Positions 457 to 19,286 of a DNA stretch of 32,000 nucleotides are shown here, one piece after another. The notes under the pieces are model-generated. The model was not told the origin of the DNA, made no database searches, and saw only the letters and a program-made list of their open reading frames with translations. Both the position numbers and the translations under genes were made by a program. Within the stretch, counting starts at the first letter, position 1. Every line of letters starts with the position of its first letter. Origin of the DNA: Thermofilum adornatum (GTDB lineage Archaea > Thermoproteota > Thermoprotei > Thermofilales > Thermofilaceae). Where the stretch lies: NCBI RefSeq assembly GCF_000446015.1, contig NC_022093.1, positions 660,001 through 692,000 of the forward strand, written 5' to 3'.

Positions 457-864
457 ATGGGAATAACACTTTCAGAACTTAAAGGCAAAAACGTTTACAC
501 CCAGGACGCGCGTCGAATCGGAGAAATAATTGACTTCGGCTTCAAGATAGGCGAAACCACGCCCTTCTTCGTGGTGAGAACTCCCTCCGGAAAACCCCTC
601 GAGATACCCTGGAGCAGTGTAGCGGCAGCCAAAGACATAGTTTTGCTGAAACCAGACTTCCAGGTTCCAGAAGACCTCCTCGTACAACCAGCCATGCCTG
701 TTGCAACTCCACAGACTACACAAGCACAACCTGCCCAGCAACCCCGCTTTGGAATCTTTAAGAAAAGCGAACAGAAGATTTGTCCCTACTGTGGAAAACC
801 AGCCACATGGATACCCCAGTATCAGCGCTGGTACTGCTATAATTGTCAAAAATACATAGACTAG
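457..864 (+). CDS. PRC-barrel domain protein with a Q/P-rich linker and a C-terminal CxxC...CxxC zinc ribbon
   Basis: MGITLSELKGKNVYTQDARRIGEIIDFGF...EIPWSSVAAAKDIVLL is PRC-barrel-like. The C-terminus CPYCGKPATWIPQYQRWYCYNCQKY is a 4-Cys ribbon. The ATG at 457 is preferred over the TTG at 391 because of the TATA box at 428-435. Confidence 0.6.
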   Translation: MGITLSELKGKNVYTQDARRIGEIIDFGFKIGETTPFFVVRTPSGKPLEIPWSSVAAAKDIVLLKPDFQVPEDLLVQPAMPVATPQTTQAQPAQQPRFGIFKKSEQKICPYCGKPATWIPQYQRWYCYNCQKYID

Positions 865-918: not shown

Positions 919-941
919 TCAAATAAGAATTTTTCAACCGA

Positions 942-1046
942 GCGGTGCGCGCGGCATAGCCGCCAGTAGAGAGCGCTTCAAGCTAAAGGCGGTGTACCGC
1001 CGGTAGCTGTGAAAAGGCGTGTTGCCTGGCGGCTACAGCGCACCGA
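942..1046. ncRNA. Roughly 105-nt G+C-rich long irregular hairpin RNA of unknown class (possibly H/ACA-like); strand not resolved
   Basis: A G+C-rich island sits in an A+T-rich intergenic region. Perfect 8-bp helices are CGGTGCGC (943-950) with GCGCACCG (1038-1045), and GCCGCCAG (959-966) with CTGGCGGC (1026-1033). Inner pairings are 973-977/1016-1020, AGCT 981-984/1005-1008, and the hairpin GGCGG-TGTA-CCGCC (989-1002). TATA-like boxes flank it on both sides (911-918 on +, and 1069-1082 read on -). Confidence 0.45.
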
Positions 1047-1115
1047 GGACGACCACCCTTTAGTTGTAAAATTAAAATACCTGAATATTGTTGCTAGTTT
1101 AGTGGTGTGGTATAT

Positions 1116-2447
1116 ATGGGTGGTTTACCTGTTTCACCTAAATATGTTATAAGGGCTAGAATAGATGTTAAGGGTAACGTCGAGAAGCACGATATAATAG
1201 GGGCGATTTTTGGACAGGCTGAGGGCTTGATTGGAAACGAGCTTGACTTGAGAGAGCTCCAGAAGCTTGGGAGGATTGGCAGGATTGAGGTTGAGATGAA
1301 GCAACAGGACGGCAACGTTGTGGCTGAGGTGGAGATACCGACGAACCTTGACATGGCTGAGACAGCGATAATAGCGGCGACTATCGAGACCATTGATAAG
1401 GTGGGTCCTTATCCTGCCAGGAGCGAGGTAGTATCTATAGAAGACGCCAGGGCCGAAAAAAGGCAGAAAATTATAGAGAGAGCTGTTGAGCTATACAAAA
1501 AGTTGCAGGAAAGTATACCTGAGTCTAAGGAATTAGTCGAAGAAGTTCTCCGCAGGGTTCGGTCTGCTGAACTTGTAGAATACGGGGAGGAAAAACTTCC
1601 AGGCGGACCCGACGTAAAGACCTCGGATACCATTATACTTGTGGAGGGAAGGGCGGACGTCTTAAACTTGCTGAGGTACGGCTACAAGAACGTGTTAGCA
1701 CTGGGAGGCGCCACTATTCCCCCAAGTTTAAGGGAACTCCTTTCAAACAAGAAAGTTATCTTGTTCGTCGACGGGGATAGGGGCGGCGAGCTGATAGCGA
1801 GGAACGTAGTGAATTCTCTAAAGGTCGACTATATAGCCAGGGCTCCGCAGGGCAGAGAAGTCGAGGAGCTCACCGCAAAAGAAATTGCAAGGTCCCTACA
1901 GAATGCTGTACCAGTTAAAGATTTCCTTGAAGAGCTTGAGAAAGAAAAGAAACTGCAGAAAGAGAGGGAGACAAAAGCCGAGGTTATTGTCCCACCCACG
2001 AAGCTTATTAAATCCATCAAGAAAAATCCCGATATGGCTCAAGAAGTAGTTGTCCCCCTCGAGGTTTACCAGAAGATGGACGAATTAAAGGGAACCCTGG
2101 AAGCCATAATCTATGACGACAACTGGCAGATGCTTGAGAGGGTTCCTGTGAGGGATCTTGTTAACAAGCTAAAAGAGGTAGATAAAGCTGCACACGTAGT
2201 GCTGGACGGGATCATAACTCAACGCTTGGTAGACATCGCGTACACAAAGGGAGTGAAGACACTCATTGGTGTACGTATAGGGGAAATCATCAGGAAGCCG
2301 GACAACACAGTTCTCGCCACTTTCTCGACCGTCAAGCCGGAAAGCTCGCCTGAGACACCTGTCCAGCAAGAAAACGCTAATTCAAACACGGAAAACCAAG
2401 ACGCAGTGCATCAAGAAAACCAGCCAAGCGCCCAGGCACAGCAGTGA
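1116..2447 (+). CDS. dnaG: Archaeal DnaG-type primase / exosome-associated TOPRIM protein
   Basis: The N-terminus PKYVIRARIDVKGNVEKHDIIGAIFGQAEGLIG is characteristic of archaeal DnaG. The TOPRIM core is IILVEGRADVLNLLRYGYKNVLALGG...ILFVDGDRGGELI. The ATG at 1116 is preferred over the GTG at 1107. There is a Q/N/E-rich low-complexity C-terminal tail. Confidence 0.9.
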   Translation: MGGLPVSPKYVIRARIDVKGNVEKHDIIGAIFGQAEGLIGNELDLRELQKLGRIGRIEVEMKQQDGNVVAEVEIPTNLDMAETAIIAATIETIDKVGPYPARSEVVSIEDARAEKRQKIIERAVELYKKLQESIPESKELVEEVLRRVRSAELVEYGEEKLPGGPDVKTSDTIILVEGRADVLNLLRYGYKNVLALGGATIPPSLRELLSNKKVILFVDGDRGGELIARNVVNSLKVDYIARAPQGREVEELTAKEIARSLQNAVPVKDFLEELEKEKKLQKERETKAEVIVPPTKLIKSIKKNPDMAQEVVVPLEVYQKMDELKGTLEAIIYDDNWQMLERVPVRDLVNKLKEVDKAAHVVLDGIITQRLVDIAYTKGVKTLIGVRIGEIIRKPDNTVLATFSTVKPESSPETPVQQENANSNTENQDAVHQENQPSAQAQQ

Positions 2448-4775: not shown

Positions 4776-4834
4776 GGCGATGATGAAAAAACGCCTTCCG
4801 ACACTAAATGAGGAGCAGGAGTACCCCTGAGTAA
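4776..4834 (+). ncRNA. Candidate C/D-box sRNA
   Basis: C box ATGATGA (4780-4786), exactly 12 nt, degenerate D' CGAC (4799-4802), 5-nt loop, C' ATGAGGA (4808-4814), exactly 12 nt, D box CTGA (4827-4830), then T5 (4838-4842). It fills the 77-nt convergent gap between infB and hel308. Confidence 0.55.
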
Positions 4835-4843
4835 AAATTTTTC

Positions 4844-7069
4844 TCAAACACCGAAATATTCCTCGAGGTTTATCTGTTCAGCTTCTTCTAGTCTTTCCCC
4901 CTCCACCTCTTCCTGGCTCTCTACTGGGCTCTTCAGTTGCTGTTTTATTGCCTTTACGAGTGCCGGCCCAAAGCCCGGTATACGCAACAGCTCCTTCTCG
5001 TCTGCAACCGCTAGGTCATATATCGACCTATAGCCATGCTCGTACAGCTTCCTGGCCCTTACCCTGCCTATGCCCTTCAGCGCCACGAGTTCAAGTAGTT
5101 CTTCTTTTACCCCATGCGCTATTCTCTTGCTTAAAATGCTTAGTTTCACCGAGTGCTCATGGAAGCCTAGAATCTCCGCTATCTGGGAAAGAGAAAAAGA
5201 TATCCATTCGGCTGTCTGCGTCAATGAGTATATGTCTCCTGGGCCCACGTCATACTTCTCTACGATGCTGTCTTCTGGAACCTCATTTATCCAGTCCTCG
5301 AGCAAGAGGGCTGTCTTGAGGTATGAAAGGAAGAACTCATACTCTATCTCGTCCTGAGGAACCTGGTATGGAATCTCTCTTCCTCTATCCTCAAGGACTT
5401 CTTCTAGATACTCATAGTCACCTCGCCTTACACCTATAGTCGTCATGTCCGGAGTTTTAGATACAAGGAAGAGGTAGCCCAACACCTCCAGGCTTTCATG
5501 CTCTTTGAAGAGTCTTATACCTTCGAGGGCTGTATCCGGATCAATGTATAGCTCGGCAATCCTTTTCCCTAGAAAAGTAGGATTAAGGACTCCGTTCTTT
5601 TCCTCTATAAGTCCACCGGCGATAAGTTTCTCTAGGTTTTTCCTTGCAAGCGGGAGGATACCAAATGTTCCGTATCTCTGTGCGAAAAATGTTCTGCCTA
5701 GAAATTTCTCTAGCATATCCATGCTTCTTATTTTCTCATCAGTGGAGATAACCGCTAGTAGCTGAGACCTTAAGACAGGCTCGGAACCCAGCTGTGACTG
5801 TAGATTCTCTGGCTCAGCATAGATATACTTCTTGAACAAGTATTCTACCTCCTCGAAGCTCCTCGCTATAAGTATGGCTTCACCCTCTTTGTCGAACTTT
5901 GGTCTACCAGCCCTACCAGCCATCTGCTTATACTCCATAACTGGGATACTCTCTTGGTAGCCCAGCTCAACATTGTATCTCCTGTAATCGGTGATGACAA
6001 CCCTTCTCGCCGGTAGATTCACGCCTGCCGCAAGGGTGGGAGTTGCAACAACTGCCTTTATGTGGCCAGCCCTAAAGAGATCCTCAACTATTTCACGCGC
6101 GTCACCCGATAAACCCGCGTGGTGGAAAGCGACACCCCTGAGCAACAACTCTGCGAGCTCATGTGTAAGTTTATCGGCATGTAGCGACACTAGCTTTCTT
6201 GACGCTTCTTGAAGAACCCTTTTAGATCCTTCCGCTACAAATTTTCTCGATATATTTGCAACTTTTTTCGCCTCTGCAACTGCCGCCCTCCTTGTCGGAG
6301 AAAAAATCAAGACTTGTCCAGACTCTCTCAATGTGTCATATGTGAGACTGAGAACACTGTTTCCCAGGCTGTCTATCCTCCGCGTAGAGCCGTCAGCGAA
6401 GAAAATGTTTTCGTCGTAGTATACACCTTCTCTCAGAACAACAGGCCGCCAGTCTACTTTCACAGGTTTGGCATGGAGCCATCTAGCTACGTCTTCTAGG
6501 TTTCCAATTGTCGCGCTAAGCCCCAGAAGTTGCGGGGTATCTTCAGACATGAGTATACGTGTCAGCAACACTTCTAGCGTTGCTCCACGCTTCTCTGTTC
6601 CCAATAGGTGTATCTCGTCGGCAACTATAAGCGTTAGGCTGGGAAACCATGGAGCACTGTGACGCATGAGGCTGTCGGCTTTTTCGTTAGTGGTAACGAT
6701 AACGTCGTACTTGCCCAGTGCTGGATCGGCAGAGTCATAATCCCCCGTGCTGAGAACGGTCTTGTACCCGAAGGCTCCAAAAAACTTTTTGAATTCTTTG
6801 TATTTTTCGGACGCCAAAGCCCTCAGGGGAACCAGGTATAGAACCTTTCCTCCTTCCTCTAGGTGCTTCAATGCAGCCAGCCCAGCCACGAGTGTTTTGC
6901 CAGAGGCCGTCGGCGCGCTTAGAACGATATTTTCGCCGTCTAGAACACCATTTTTTATCGCTAGTAGCTGTGTAGGGTAGAGGGACTTTACGCCCTCCTC
7001 TTCCAGCTTACTAATAATCTCTTGGGAAAAATATTTCGACAAAACCTGACGTGCAGGCGTGTACTCCAT
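4844..7069 (-). CDS. hel308: Ski2-like DNA helicase Hel308 (Hjm)
   Basis: The motifs are LSAPTASGKTLVA (Walker A), ADEIH (DEAH-type), SATIGN and QMAGRAGR. The C-terminal HhH-like domain reads LVALKGIGRVRARKLYEHGY. The ATG at 7069 is preferred; a GTG at 7078 is also possible. The gene begins 8-17 nt after the mcm stop. Confidence 0.9.
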   Translation of the reverse strand: MEYTPARQVLSKYFSQEIISKLEEEGVKSLYPTQLLAIKNGVLDGENIVLSAPTASGKTLVAGLAALKHLEEGGKVLYLVPLRALASEKYKEFKKFFGAFGYKTVLSTGDYDSADPALGKYDVIVTTNEKADSLMRHSAPWFPSLTLIVADEIHLLGTEKRGATLEVLLTRILMSEDTPQLLGLSATIGNLEDVARWLHAKPVKVDWRPVVLREGVYYDENIFFADGSTRRIDSLGNSVLSLTYDTLRESGQVLIFSPTRRAAVAEAKKVANISRKFVAEGSKRVLQEASRKLVSLHADKLTHELAELLLRGVAFHHAGLSGDAREIVEDLFRAGHIKAVVATPTLAAGVNLPARRVVITDYRRYNVELGYQESIPVMEYKQMAGRAGRPKFDKEGEAILIARSFEEVEYLFKKYIYAEPENLQSQLGSEPVLRSQLLAVISTDEKIRSMDMLEKFLGRTFFAQRYGTFGILPLARKNLEKLIAGGLIEEKNGVLNPTFLGKRIAELYIDPDTALEGIRLFKEHESLEVLGYLFLVSKTPDMTTIGVRRGDYEYLEEVLEDRGREIPYQVPQDEIEYEFFLSYLKTALLLEDWINEVPEDSIVEKYDVGPGDIYSLTQTAEWISFSLSQIAEILGFHEHSVKLSILSKRIAHGVKEELLELVALKGIGRVRARKLYEHGYRSIYDLAVADEKELLRIPGFGPALVKAIKQQLKSPVESQEEVEGERLEEAEQINLEEYFGV

Positions 7070-9176: not shown

Positions 9177-9729
9177 GTTGATCCTCCATTACGAACATTT
9201 TCATCGACTGGGTCCACTCATTTATAGACTTGCATAGAGACGTGTAGAGTATCTGCTCCTCTTTCGTCATGGACTCCATAAACTCTCTGCTTATCTCTGG
9301 ATGCGAAGCAGCAAGTCTAACTATTTTTGTGAGCCGTAACCTCAAGAGATCAAGAAACGCGATGCGTGTCTTTTCCAGCATGCCTTGGGCGGCCGCGTCT
9401 CCCGAAGCCGCCTTTCTTTTTAGCAGATAAAAGTAGATTTTAAGCTTCAGGTAAAAATTGTCGTCTAGAGAAGAGAGGCCCTCAGACTTTTCCTCGATCC
9501 AGGTCTGCTTACGCACTGCTGAGAGGTCGAGTAGCTTCCCCTCGTCATATTTTACACTGCCCTTTGCCTCGAGCTCCTTAGCAATGATGAACGGTAATTT
9601 GACTTTTGTCCCCTTTTGGAGCTGTATCTGTAGTCCGCCTGGAAGCACAACTACGTCGTTTTGTACTACTTCGACATCTACCTCTGCATCGTAGTAGAGC
9701 AGGGTGCCCGCCAGTTTATCTATCATCAT
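9169..9729 (-). CDS. GINS subunit, Gins23-type (by context and weak sequence pattern)
   Basis: A 186-aa protein lies directly upstream of mcm and overlaps it by 8 nt. gins23-mcm linkage is known in Sulfolobus. The segment ...FLDLLRLRLTKIVRLA resembles the helical GINS A-domain. Confidence 0.55.
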   Translation of the reverse strand: MMIDKLAGTLLYYDAEVDVEVVQNDVVVLPGGLQIQLQKGTKVKLPFIIAKELEAKGSVKYDEGKLLDLSAVRKQTWIEEKSEGLSSLDDNFYLKLKIYFYLLKRKAASGDAAAQGMLEKTRIAFLDLLRLRLTKIVRLAASHPEISREFMESMTKEEQILYTSLCKSINEWTQSMKMFVMEDQHV

Positions 9730-16705: not shown

Positions 16706-17085
16706 AAGAGCCCCAGACCATCATTTTATAAACAACAATCAGAACCACCTATAAAAAACGTTAACGCGAACAAAAAGAAAAACCTCATAATACATGGAAC
16801 CACAATGAGGCTACCCCTCTCCACAAGAATCATCCAACCTCATTCCCTTTCATAAAACATTTTTCTAAAACTATATTGATTGTATTTTTAAAGAGAATTT
16901 TTCAGAGTATGAGCTGAATGCTAATGAAGACTTATTGGTTTATGTCAGCAACTCTTTAGCTGTCAATGTAGACAAAACTAATTCTTGTCTCAATTGAAGC
17001 ACCAAACATCTGAGATAAAAGGTGGTCTAGGCGAATGGGTTCCCTTTTTCCGGGTTTTATGTATTCGGTAACTTTCTCTTGAGTT

Positions 17086-17722
17086 TGGCCGCTCGAGCCC
17101 GCAACTGTGTGGGCGTGTGACCAGCGGCAATCGTCTAGGGCCCCTTGGGCAACATGCATCCCCTCGGGGCCGCGTGTACACGCCGAGCACGTGGGATGAC
17201 CCCCAGCTAGAGTATGCTCGGCGTGGGTAGGGGGGACGCAGATGGCTAGGGGTGGGCCCGCAGAGGGCCGGGTAGCCTAAAGCATGCAGCCCGTCCGCCA
17301 AAAAACGAGTCTTTTTTCTGGCCCCTTTCCATTTTTTCTTCTTTCCCCTTTTCCCCGATCCGCCCCCACCCTCATATGGGTGGCGCCCCCAAAACAGGGG
17401 GCGGCTTCGACGCCCGAACCGTGTATGGGGGACCCTGCACGGCTCTGGGCAATGAGGGTCGCGCCTCGCCACGGGAGACCCTGACAGGCGCGGCTAGGGG
17501 AAGGGGGAAAGGGGCCAGCTACTGAATGCCTTGCCTTCACTATACACGGCAGTCCAAAAACACTCATAGACCCACACATGTGCCCGTCCCGCCGGCCCCT
17601 GGGGCCTAGCCGGATCCATGCCTCCGCGCCCTCACAGGGCGCCCCCGGATCCCAGGCTCCGGGGTGAGCAGGCATGGATATGGCTACAGGCCCCGAGGGA
17701 AGGCGGACGGGCCCCACCGACC
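17086..17722 (+). ncRNA. Large G+C-rich, highly self-complementary non-coding block: unclassified structured RNA(s) or a structured leader of the downstream ORF. Strand is inferred from context only.
   Basis: Composition jumps sharply: 47 of 60 nt are G/C in 17581-17640, against 14 of 60 in 16861-16920. All ORFs inside are Arg/Pro/Gly-rich nonsense. Many perfect helices are present, including the long-range pairs 17289-17299/17702-17712 (11 bp), 17318-17330/17506-17518 (13 bp) and 17614-17622/17671-17679 (9 bp). In a hyperthermophile with a moderate-GC genome such islands usually mark structural RNA. Confidence 0.5.
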
Positions 17723-18894
17723 TACTAGCAGAACTATACAGTAGAACACAGCTAGCGCAAAGCCAGCTAGGCAACCTGTTCAGCGGGCAGAAAAAATACT
17801 TCTACAAGACATCAGAAGCCATAGTTGACATATTCGACCTCCCACTAGACAAGGCAGACACATTGCGAGACTTTGCTGAGAAAGCCGTCAACCTGCTGGA
17901 CAAGGCATACCCACAAGCAGAGGCAAAGCTACAGAAACTATTGAAAGCCCTAGAAAGCAACAACGTCAAAGTCGAGCTAGGACCATGTGCTAAGAAGACG
18001 CTTCACGTCACGCCAGAAGGGGAAAAATGGTATGTCAGTGCTCATATGGTAGAGGATAAGAGATGGCTAATAAGCCTACCAATCTACAGGGTAAGCGCCG
18101 ACGCCGAGTTCCCAGACATACTCAACGTATCCGACCAAGACCTCTACTACCTACAGGCAGGATGGCGGGCAAGCGACGAATCCTATGAAGGAGACAAACC
18201 TAAGATGGGGACAACACAGCAATGGCAAGTATTCGCGTGGACAGCAGTGAGATACGGCTACTTAAGGGTTTATTTAAAAAACCTGAACTTTAACAAGAGT
18301 GGACCGACAATTCATTGGGTGTTAACTGCAAAGAGCTGGAACCAGCAGTGGCCCACGCGTGAAGGAAAGAAACAGGCACAGCAAGTAGCAAAACGGCATC
18401 CACTAGGCTTGCTGGCTTGGTACCTCGGCGACGGTAGGAGACACAAACACGACCTCTTATATGCAGTTGGAGACGACGAGGAATATAAGCCTAAAAACCT
18501 TATCCCAGAAATACTCCAAGCTGCGTACTATACAGGCTACGGAAAACTGCTAGACCTCCTAGAAAGCGAAAAATGGATAACACTGAAAAAGATTAAACCT
18601 AGAAAGCAACCAATATACGCAACACTCCTAGGACACACTTTCTGGCTTGTATATTTTTACAAAGAATTGAGTGCAAGAACACTATTCAAAGACCTCGGCG
18701 AAGCAGAAAAGCTGACAAAAGTCCTGGCAGACGTAGGCCTACAGGCAAAAGTGCGCACGTGGCAGTATCAGGGACGTGGTCCGTACTATTTTGTCGAATT
18801 AGATCAAACATCCGTCCTAAGACTAGCCGAAAACAATCAAGAATGGCGCTATGCACTCAATCAGATAGCACAAAAATACAGAAAACAGCTCTAA
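17674..18894 (+). CDS. Hypothetical 406-aa protein with two degenerate LAGLIDADG-like motifs (possible homing-endonuclease-like fold)
   Basis: This long ORF has host-like composition and no competing frame. The motifs are YLQAGWRASDE (aa 159-169, nt 18148-18180) and LLAWYLGDG (aa 246-254, nt 18409-18435). Each is followed by beta-strand-like segments, and the two acidic residues are 85 aa apart. I recognise no other family. Confidence 0.6.
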   Translation: MDMATGPEGRRTGPTDLLAELYSRTQLAQSQLGNLFSGQKKYFYKTSEAIVDIFDLPLDKADTLRDFAEKAVNLLDKAYPQAEAKLQKLLKALESNNVKVELGPCAKKTLHVTPEGEKWYVSAHMVEDKRWLISLPIYRVSADAEFPDILNVSDQDLYYLQAGWRASDESYEGDKPKMGTTQQWQVFAWTAVRYGYLRVYLKNLNFNKSGPTIHWVLTAKSWNQQWPTREGKKQAQQVAKRHPLGLLAWYLGDGRRHKHDLLYAVGDDEEYKPKNLIPEILQAAYYTGYGKLLDLLESEKWITLKKIKPRKQPIYATLLGHTFWLVYFYKELSARTLFKDLGEAEKLTKVLADVGLQAKVRTWQYQGRGPYYFVELDQTSVLRLAENNQEWRYALNQIAQKYRKQL

Positions 18895-18975
18895 AGGCTA
18901 CCTAGGCTCGCGGAAAACCCACCCCTCTACACGAAAAATTTAATATCCCTCAAAACTTTCTTATTTTTGATTATA

Positions 18976-19052
18976 GGCCTCGGTGGTGTAGCCTTTGGAA
19001 GCACGCCGGCCTGTGGAGCCGGTGGTCCCGGGTTCGAATCCCGGCCGAGGCC
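18976..19052 (+). tRNA. tRNA-His (anticodon GTG) with genome-encoded G-1 and discriminator C73; no CCA encoded
   Basis: Manual cloverleaf: acceptor GCCTCGG/CCGAGGC preceded by an extra G; D-stem GTGT/GCAC; anticodon arm CCGGC-CTGTGGA-GCCGG; T-arm CCGGG-TTCGAAT-CCCGG. A TATA-like box lies at 18938-18950. Confidence 0.9.
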
Positions 19053-19182
19053 CTTCTGCTTCTATATTAAATGTCCTTGGGAATCAATCATCTAATCTAG
19101 CTATTTTTCTGATTGTTTTCATTTCTGGAGTTGTAGCGCCTATTTTATTGTTGGAACTCTCTTGCGTGTATGAGAGGTAGAA

Positions 19183-19286
19183 TGGCGCCGGGGCCGGGAT
19201 TTGAACCCGGGCACCCTTTTGGGGTAGTGGATCTCGAGTGTGGCTTTTGGGGTGTCCACCGCCTTGGTCCGCTCGGCCACCCCGGC
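19183..19286 (-). tRNA. tRNA-Ser (anticodon CGA), class II with a long variable arm, a 16-nt intron (19238-19253) in the anticodon-loop region, and encoded CCA
   Basis: The reverse complement reads GCCGGGG-TG-GCCGAGCGGACCAAGGC-G-GTGGAC[ACCCCAAAAGCCACAC]TCGAGATCCAC-TACCCCAAAAGGGTG-CCCGGGTTCAAATCCCGG-CCCCGGC-G-CCA. After removal of the 16 nt the anticodon arm is GTGGA-CTCGAGA-TCCAC. G73 and the long variable arm fit Ser. Confidence 0.85.

Follow-up and report, generated by a model that had tools for sequence, protein, structure and literature searches.

We report here that a G+C-rich, densely base-paired block at positions 17086-17722 of a 32,000-nt stretch of the Thermofilum adornatum genome (NC_022093.1, positions 660,001 to 692,000; called the window below, and the reference for all coordinates that do not follow the L number of another locus) belongs to a repeated RNA-plus-endonuclease unit tied to tRNA genes, and falls among kinds of RNA that are already known, namely nuclease-associated structured RNAs and translational-gate leaders. 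The block is the 5′ part of a unit of ~1.9 kb (about 17007-18948) that comprises a promoter, a structured RNA of ~630 nt and an open reading frame (ORF) of 406 amino acids; this extent is given by blastn, in which homology with other loci begins at ~17007 and stops at 18925-18948. An earlier note, made from the letters of the window alone, had called the block an undescribed structured RNA, and the call stands, as the RNA is conserved and covarying, matches no Rfam model and is not described in the literature searched. The same note had placed it between ksgA and the ORF, but it is no gene of its own there, being fused to the ORF with the Shine-Dalgarno (SD) element, the AUG and codons 1-13 all within its 3′ domain; the note also missed the tRNA-gene context, which is probably key to the biology.

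The relatives bear out that the block is a conserved base-paired RNA under selection, since its helices are kept there by compensatory changes, and they thereby remove an objection raised in the earlier note, that homologous loci lacking such changes would point to a relic of foreign DNA. The comparison shows three conserved parts, a 5′ domain with modules M1-M3, a multi-branch domain B and a 3′ three-way junction, domain C. In domain C 93.8% of cells are paired, compared with 30-49% when the partners are slid, and in an alignment fitted to the covariance model of this domain (R1) both sides change across lineages in 37 of the 51 pairs; the model finds the domain upstream of the ORF in 43 loci and scores the window at 128 bits on the sense strand and 47.5 bits on the antisense strand. 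The stem of M1 takes at least eight different fully complementary sequences across lineages, compared here by anchored extraction, as MAFFT plus RNAalifold could not align it. For domain B, RNAalifold shows helices B3 and B7 with compensatory changes and B2 with many U-G pairs, and three loci (L035, L081, L048) have both strands of B1 deleted together. Paired columns hold G-U/U-G and A-C/C-A in ratios of 159:46 in domain C and 70:3 in domain B, an excess that identifies the + strand as the folded one. All these modules are restricted to Thermofilales-type loci.

The G+C content of 17086-17722 is 66% (420/637), against 47.8% for the whole window, and the profile shows 26-38% at 16850-17050, a rise to 58-72% over 17050-17750 and, beyond that, a fall to ~48%, the coding level. 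The sharp edges claimed earlier, with 47 G/C in the 60 nt of 17581-17640 and 14 in those of 16861-16920, are thus confirmed, both counts being exact; of the bounds themselves, the last ~50 nt (17674-17722) turn out to be the first codons of the ORF, though they also take part in the RNA structure, and sequence conservation starts at ~17007, in an AT-rich promoter region, ahead of the G+C rise at 17086. The block is non-coding, as had been supposed, with stops in all six frames in all 19 close copies and with indels that ignore the reading frame (gap runs of length 1, 2 and 0 modulo 3 number 181, 98 and 50, so that most are not multiples of three). Gene callers put spurious ORFs into it nonetheless, and annotated Thermofilum genomes carry such calls because of it. 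Both long-range complements listed before, 11 bp between 17289-17299 and 17702-17712 and 13 bp between 17318-17330 and 17506-17518, are exact. So are three of the local helices (17112-18/17178-84, 17366-71/17378-83 and 17385-90/17397-402), while two others had been misplaced by 1-5 nt and have their true arms at 17179-17189/17215-17225 and 17244-17248/17273-17277. Perfect inverted repeats reach 13 nt, whereas the longest ones in 60 shuffles average 9.1 nt and never exceed 12, and the minimum free energy (MFE) has a z-score of -4.4 at 37°C (dinucleotide shuffles) and of -8.7 at 85°C (mononucleotide shuffles), a temperature at which the fold is predicted to be stable.

The whole unit lies on the + strand. 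Its conserved AT-rich promoter region (17015-17064 in the alignment) has one TATA-like box at 17015-17022 (ATAAAAGG) and another at 17054-17064 (GTTTTATGTAT), and from the second of these transcription is predicted to start at ~17086-17090, its earliest position coinciding with the rise in G+C. Lineages with an alternative 5′ part have a TATA box (TTTTTTAACGAC) ~28 nt ahead of their first RNA module. The structured RNA proper (17086-17715) would form the leader of the ORF mRNA and may in addition exist as a stable RNA. It opens with hairpins at 17088-17171, drawn from MFE and RNAalifold folds (P1, 17088-93/17123-28; P1a, 17097-102/17109-14; A2, 17139-44/17166-71), that are present in window-type copies and missing from the alternative-5′ lineages in the alignment. 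Module M1 (17172-17243) follows, in which a loop carrying GAUGA at 17195-17199 is capped by the stem 17179-17189/17215-17225, and which in other lineages reads (A)UGAUGAAC, stem, GGGAUGACGAUGAACCC, complementary stem and GGGAUGGGUGAGGAC; its motifs look box C/D-like or k-turn-like (kink-turn-like). Module M2 (17244-17277, GGCUAGGGGUGGGCCCGCAGAGGGCCGGGUAGCC) has a core, GGGGUGGG..CCGCAGAG.GCCGAGUAGCC, that is conserved in all Thermofilales lineages. High-GC lineage copies in L041, L043 and L046 carry a variable number of ~45-nt repeats between M1 and M2, with units GCAGCAGAGCAUAG... and CACCGGUAAGC...AAAGCAUAG.

Module M3 (17289-17318) consists of GCCCGUCCGCC at 17289-17299, then a conserved A-run, a spacer and a U6 tract at 17300-17318, and the U-tract is a candidate attenuator. 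M3 is exactly complementary to 17702-12, and so, with one bulge, is the 5′ strand of helix C1 (17582-93), which makes a switch between alternative pairings of M3 and C1-5′ plausible; in L048 and L081 a G-to-A change in M3 is paralleled by a C-to-U change in the 3′ strand. A comparison of duplex energies between cognate and non-cognate pairs of M3 and C1-3′ was uninformative, most copies being of one lineage. Domain B (17318-17518) is a multi-branch structure closed by pyrimidine/purine helices, B1 (17318-30/17506-18) and B2 (17345-56/17497-507), with hairpins B3 (17366-83), B4 (17384-403), the variable and replaceable B5/6 (17412-49) and B7 (17457-65/17487-95), with AAUGAGG ahead of B7. Conserved GAUGA-type motifs occur at 17195-99, at 17451-57 and in M1 of other lineages, and are candidate kink-turn/L7Ae sites. 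Between domains B and C lies a variable, AT-richer cassette (17519-17579) that occurs in at least three unrelated types of 60-140 nt, the second of which found no match in Rfam. A guide-like role for it was considered and rejected, as the same type stands beside different tRNAs and identical ORFs carry different cassettes.

Domain C (17580-17714) is a three-way junction of helices C1 (17582-93/17702-12), C2 (17601-23/17670-94), C3 (17626-42) and C4 (17643-64), and it contains the start of the ORF. An SD-like GGUGAG at 17663-68, which we take to be the usual crenarchaeal core, stands 6-10 nt ahead of the AUG at 17674. G17663 and G17664 of this element sit in helix C4, the AUG (17674-76) pairs with 17617-19 in helix C2, and codons 10-13 (17702-12) form the 3′ strand of C1. 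The start and the SD-like element are thus paired within a conserved structure contiguous with the ORF, which is what a cis-regulatory translational gate looks like, the regulatory effect itself being predicted. The sequences of helices C3 and C4 hardly vary, and copies without domains A and B (L052/L036, L042) still keep them; domain C is the minimal element beside the start codon.

The ORF (17674-18894) had been described as an orphan, which it is not: a protein search gave 80 homologues at E<=1e-3 and a library of 1.84 billion proteins gave 261 cluster representatives, numbers that mark a narrow family, and the fold is LAGLIDADG-like. Family members come from Thermofilum at 45-94% identity and from Thermoproteus and Pyrobaculum at about 30%, and the viral contigs searched hold no relative. 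The window ORF stops at an in-frame TAA ~18 codons short of the usual C-terminus of this small family. Pfam, NCBIfam and PADLOC gave no family for it or for its distant relatives, and a paREP2 identity for the Pyrobaculum relatives was not substantiated by any Pfam match. In the AlphaFold model (predicted local distance difference test score of 88, residues 1-12 disordered) the product has extra N- and C-terminal domains beyond a LAGLIDADG-like core. The best matches of this model in the Protein Data Bank (PDB) by Foldseek are almost all LAGLIDADG enzymes (2dch at probability 0.99, 7qsu at E 6.8e-4, with TM-scores of only 0.14-0.28), among them I-Tsp061I and I-DmoI, both from archaeal introns, and the bI3 maturase. 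Two invariant motifs, LQAGWRASDE (residues 159-169) and LLAWYLGDG (246-254), agree with the LAGLIDADG pattern and contain the invariant acidic residues D168 and D253, and three members match Pfam LAGLIDADG_3 below threshold (E 0.005-0.012); a profile search of PDB sequences returned nothing but a designed helical protein. Variation within the family product falls in its beta strands. The product is taken here as a divergent, probably active LAGLIDADG-type endonuclease, an assignment that these data support but do not prove.

When window 17001-17680 was searched by blastn against 104 related loci, most Thermofilum-type loci proved to have the block immediately before the ORF, at 86-91% identity over 520-690 nt, while the ORFs of the same loci were merely 45-66% identical in protein. 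Local alignments place domains A and B at 91-96% identity whatever the identity of the ORF protein (45-84%); the RNA evolves at a far lower rate than the nuclease encoded downstream of it. Leader and ORF have different histories, which indicates recombination: L062 and L064 have ORFs that are 100% identical, leaders at 93%, far-upstream regions at 87% and different cassettes, and the junctions of such mosaics are located at the ORF start. The unit is scattered among unrelated genes, with two copies on single Thermofilum metagenome contigs and at least 11 copies of the family in Thermoproteus sp. CP80, and different leader types may share one contig (L035 with L043; L052 with L057). An ORF-less copy of the block was sought through homologues of a spurious block ORF and none was found, every context examined among the 9 matches adjoining the ORF or a contig end. 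A distant branch in Thermoproteus sp. CP80 and Pyrobaculum (L004-L026) has ORFs about 30% identical to the window-type family; its copies have ORFs that are 62-80% identical to one another, while the 200-800 nt ahead of these ORFs agree at 87-97%, and the branch shows neither Thermofilum RNA modules nor a tRNA association.

The association with tRNA genes is plain in the window, where an intron-less tRNA-His(GTG) gene (18977-19053, +) starts 83 nt past the ORF stop, and the 3′ end of the unit (18895-18948, +), with residual coding for ..LAENPPLYTKNLIS, overlaps the B recognition element (BRE) and TATA box of that gene (AAAAATTTAATATCC, 18934-18948). In about half of the distinct Thermofilales contexts a tRNA gene on the same strand follows ~50-100 nt after the stop; these tRNAs, several with introns, are those for His, Arg, Gln, Thr, Leu, Met, Glu and Pro. 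The junction takes a stereotyped form, in which a BRE/TATA such as AAAAATTTAAAYCC comes immediately after the conserved C-terminus ...LRRLLELAENPP and the tRNA follows ~30 nt on. Units decay: the window copy has its early in-frame stop, and the ORF is fragmented in L108. Decayed units keep the promoter-bearing end, as in L031 (~4790-4914) and L105 (~9385-9510), where only the last ~130 nt of the ORF and the BRE/TATA remain upstream of tRNA-Arg(GCG). In a related species whose KsgA is 74% identical (L111 2728-2900, also L112 and L113), the interval between ksgA and tRNA-His lacks the unit, and in L111 it has an inverted tRNA-His with introns, unlike the intron-less one of the window, abutted on the opposite strand by a remnant of the ORF 3′ end. 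Neither integrase, transposase, terminal repeats nor a general target duplication was seen at the units, and an integrase-type element was rejected, as flanking direct repeats or a duplicated tRNA fragment appear only as one short upstream remnant in the window. The unit behaves, then, as a selfish element settling at tRNA promoters.

Two further observations concern the ends of the unit. The segment AGGCTACCCCTCTCCACAAGAA at 16806-16830 looks like the ORF 3′ end (18894-18937) with an internal part deleted, and no equivalent was seen in other loci; it may be left over from an older copy that lay upstream of the unit. In L106 (7267-7480) and L028 (4279-4440) the ORF stop is immediately followed by a convergent tRNA-Met(CAT) on the minus strand, which apparently contains an intron and is enclosed by a long inverted repeat (AAGGGGGCGACCCC ... 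GGGGTCGCCCC).

The earlier note had recognised no RNA class in the block and had proposed a scan against all Rfam models, and the scan with Rfam 15 gave no match for it. At gathering thresholds the whole window yields tRNA-His only, 16800-17900 yields nothing credible at E<=10, and the homologous regions of nine other loci yield only tRNAs, apart from RNase P RNA and signal recognition particle (SRP) RNA elsewhere in these loci. The models do work in this clade: a Thermofilales metagenome-assembled genome (L002) gives RNase P RNA at 113.7 bits and SRP RNA at 93.5 bits. Archaeal RNase P RNA (RF00373) matched neither at gathering nor at E<=10, and the block is multi-copy, while RNase P RNA is normally encoded by a single-copy gene; archaeal SRP RNA (RF01857) gave no match either. 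Neither group I nor group II introns were matched, with the limit set at E<=10 for the window and at E<=1 to 5 for the nine loci, and a bulge-helix-bulge (BHB) scan of 16990-19000, in which relaxed forms were not searched, met only slippage matches in pyrimidine/purine tracts and gave no candidate that is conserved. No Rfam box C/D family matched; M1 of the alternative lineages begins (A)UGAUGA and holds GAUGACGAUGA, but its would-be guides pair with each other, and the window copy has lost the 5′ box. As for HEARO/omega RNA, there is no Rfam match, no RuvC or HNH in the protein, and no guide that tracks the neighbours. Literature searches (LAGLIDADG with Thermofilum, Thermoproteales or tRNA; Thermofilum non-coding RNA) returned no description of such an element. 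The RNA is a previously uncatalogued family confined to Thermofilum-type archaea.

Our favoured reading, to which we give somewhat less than an even chance, is that of a structured leader or ribonucleoprotein (RNP) RNA gating translation of a tRNA-gene-associated selfish LAGLIDADG-type endonuclease. Sequestration of the ribosome-binding site (RBS) in RNA hairpins is an established restraint on the homing-endonuclease genes of phage T4, and domain C would likewise be a translational gate that silences a potentially toxic nuclease. M3 (17289-99) and C1-5′ (17582-93), two copies of one 11-12-nt strand, would compete for 17702-12, and the gate would take its state from the outcome; many transcripts would end early at the conserved U-tract that follows M3, and domains A and B, with their GAUGA motifs, would form a stable protein-bound body. 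This body would engage conserved host factors, with GAUGA as candidate L7Ae sites, rather than the fast-evolving encoded protein. Several facts weigh against such a reading. About 500 further nt are kept at 86-96% identity, more than a simple gate needs, and the large RNA is dispensable in cis, given that intact members exist without any leader (L060/L076) or with only C3 and C4. The U6 runs at 17313-18 and 17333-38, both in the first 250 nt, would end much transcription before the ORF, which a separate small RNA would fit equally. The complementarity of M3 to C1-3′ is weak in the diverged L031 and L067, and is thus not universal. By energy, the reverse strand folds about as well as the sense strand, with a comparable MFE z-score at 37°C, so that energy alone cannot settle the strand. 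Four elements of the reading (transcription start, attenuator, k-turns and switch) are predictions, and the LAGLIDADG assignment depends on low-TM Foldseek matches and sub-threshold Pfam scores.

Other explanations of the same data deserve weighing. The RNA could be a stable functional partner of the nuclease, forming an RNP in trans for all copies including the leader-less ones, in the manner of maturases with intron RNA or of IscB with omega RNA, and this we consider possible but rather unlikely. It would account for an RNA that is more conserved than the protein and modular as functional RNAs are, for the extra N- and C-terminal domains, and for leader-less intact ORFs that share genomes with full units (L052 and L057, on one contig, are an example); the free recombination of leaders and ORFs would then require any interaction to be generic. 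The RNA overlaps the ORF start, as the omega RNAs of IscB do, and the conserved U-tract could release a 5′ RNA. Yet the variability of the protein in its beta strands fits protein-based DNA recognition, for which no guide is necessary, the variable cassette tracks neither the ORF type nor the tRNA neighbour, no ORF-less RNA gene was found, and we know of no RNA-dependent LAGLIDADG enzyme outside the intron maturases. The bolder proposal that the RNA is the obligatory partner in the first free-standing LAGLIDADG RNP, neither intron nor intein, together with host L7Ae, strikes us as improbable; if true, tRNA-gene promoters would be the sites where the RNP directs or licenses cleavage or recombination, and it could explain the tRNA-gene association together with the reported mobility of tRNA introns in Thermoproteales.

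Conservation might instead act mainly on the DNA, the block being a homology region or recombination substrate for the spread of the gene, homogenised by gene conversion as in intron-less homing with co-conversion of flanks, and folding being a by-product. Window-type copies in the same metagenomes, with leaders ~90% identical, divergent ORFs and different tRNA genes, speak for this, as do mosaic junctions at the ORF start and the invariant inverted repeats C3 and C4, which show no covariation and could be protein-binding sites on DNA; in the distant Thermoproteus family, too, upstream regions outconserve the ORFs without RNA modules. We nevertheless hold it to be quite unlikely, as helices are kept between lineages with completely diverged sequence, the excess of G-U over A-C is strand-specific, and distinct leader types coexist unhomogenised on one contig (L035/L043; L052/L057). 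An intron remnant or new intron type, derived from a group I or BHB intron of an rRNA or tRNA gene with the RNA as its body, is suggested by the LAGLIDADG ORF, of a sort that is typically intron-borne, by the top Foldseek matches (I-Tsp061I, I-DmoI, bI3 maturase) and by adjoining tRNA genes that vary in intron content, as between tRNA-His of the window and of L111; Thermoproteales are known for mobile tRNA and rRNA introns. With a promoter of its own, no recognisable exons, flanks of unrelated genes, no group I or II match in Rfam even at E<=10 and no BHB motif in the scan, this origin is very doubtful. Lastly, the abrupt step in G+C and the spurious ORF calls inside the block could be taken for a functionless compositional relic of foreign high-GC DNA or of a decayed coding gene, but conservation at 86-96% in dozens of loci while the adjoining ORF diverges, stops in every frame, frame-blind indels and covariation refute it, leaving it next to no credence.

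Several known systems share features with the unit. In HEARO/omega RNA with IscB, too, a large structured RNA precedes a nuclease ORF and extends into its start, several copies occur per genome and the RNA is well conserved; here, however, the protein is LAGLIDADG-like rather than of RuvC/HNH type and diverges much faster than the RNA, and there are no IS200/605 ends, no TnpA and no identified guide segment. RBS-sequestering hairpins are known on T4 homing-endonuclease genes such as I-TevI, and the free-standing SegB (GIY-YIG) lies in the T4 tRNA cluster. The unit resembles these in an RNA structure over the SD and start that would restrain the gene and in a free-standing gene beside tRNA genes, whereas T4 hairpins are tens of nt long and the RNA described here is a ~630-nt multi-domain one that different lineages conserve, in an archaeal host and with an endonuclease family other than that of SegB. 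Group I introns may encode LAGLIDADG maturases or endonucleases, and twin-ribozyme introns carry a ribozyme just 5′ of an endonuclease ORF; they too join a LAGLIDADG ORF to a large structured RNA lying 5′, but the unit has no group I core by covariance models, no exons and its own promoter. Archaeal BHB rRNA introns (I-DmoI, I-Tsp061I, I-PogI) belong to the same phylum and protein fold class and are mobile, multi-copy, GC-rich hyperthermophile RNAs; in contrast to them, the unit lies outside rRNA and tRNA genes, shows no BHB motif, and has ~590 nt of non-coding RNA ahead of the ORF, whereas each such intron is filled by its ORF. Type III toxin-antitoxin systems (ToxIN) similarly combine a structured RNA gene, a terminator-like signal and a nuclease ORF in one transcription unit, although their antitoxin RNA consists of tandem repeats and their toxin is an endoribonuclease, while the present RNA lacks repeats, the protein is of another family and PADLOC gave no match.

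To our knowledge few large archaeal non-coding RNAs are known beyond rRNA, RNase P RNA and SRP RNA, and the block adds to the archaea a large (~630-nt), well-supported structured RNA family. The unit to which it belongs targets, or is retained at, tRNA gene promoters, and so links homing endonucleases, RNA structure and instability of tRNA neighbourhoods in Thermoproteota, which are usually studied apart. It opens to test whether LAGLIDADG enzymes work with RNA outside introns, and whether such elements drive the rearrangement of tRNA genes and the gain and loss of their introns.

Some minor observations were made along the way. The 5′ strand of C1/C2, CGCCGGCCCCTGGGGCC (17590-17606), is 82% identical to the anticodon arm of tRNA-His, CGCCGGCCTGTGGAGCC (19004-19020), a resemblance probably due to chance, given that this leader segment is unchanged beside other tRNAs. 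In L002 the RNase P RNA (521-845, minus strand) adjoins the SRP RNA (941-1260, plus strand), ~3 kb upstream of the copy of the unit in that locus. Beyond tRNA-His, the minus strand of the window holds at 19183-19286 a tRNA-Ser(CGA) with a 16-nt intron, which the default ARAGORN run and Rfam at gathering thresholds had missed and which was found by intron-aware ARAGORN and by homology to L111.

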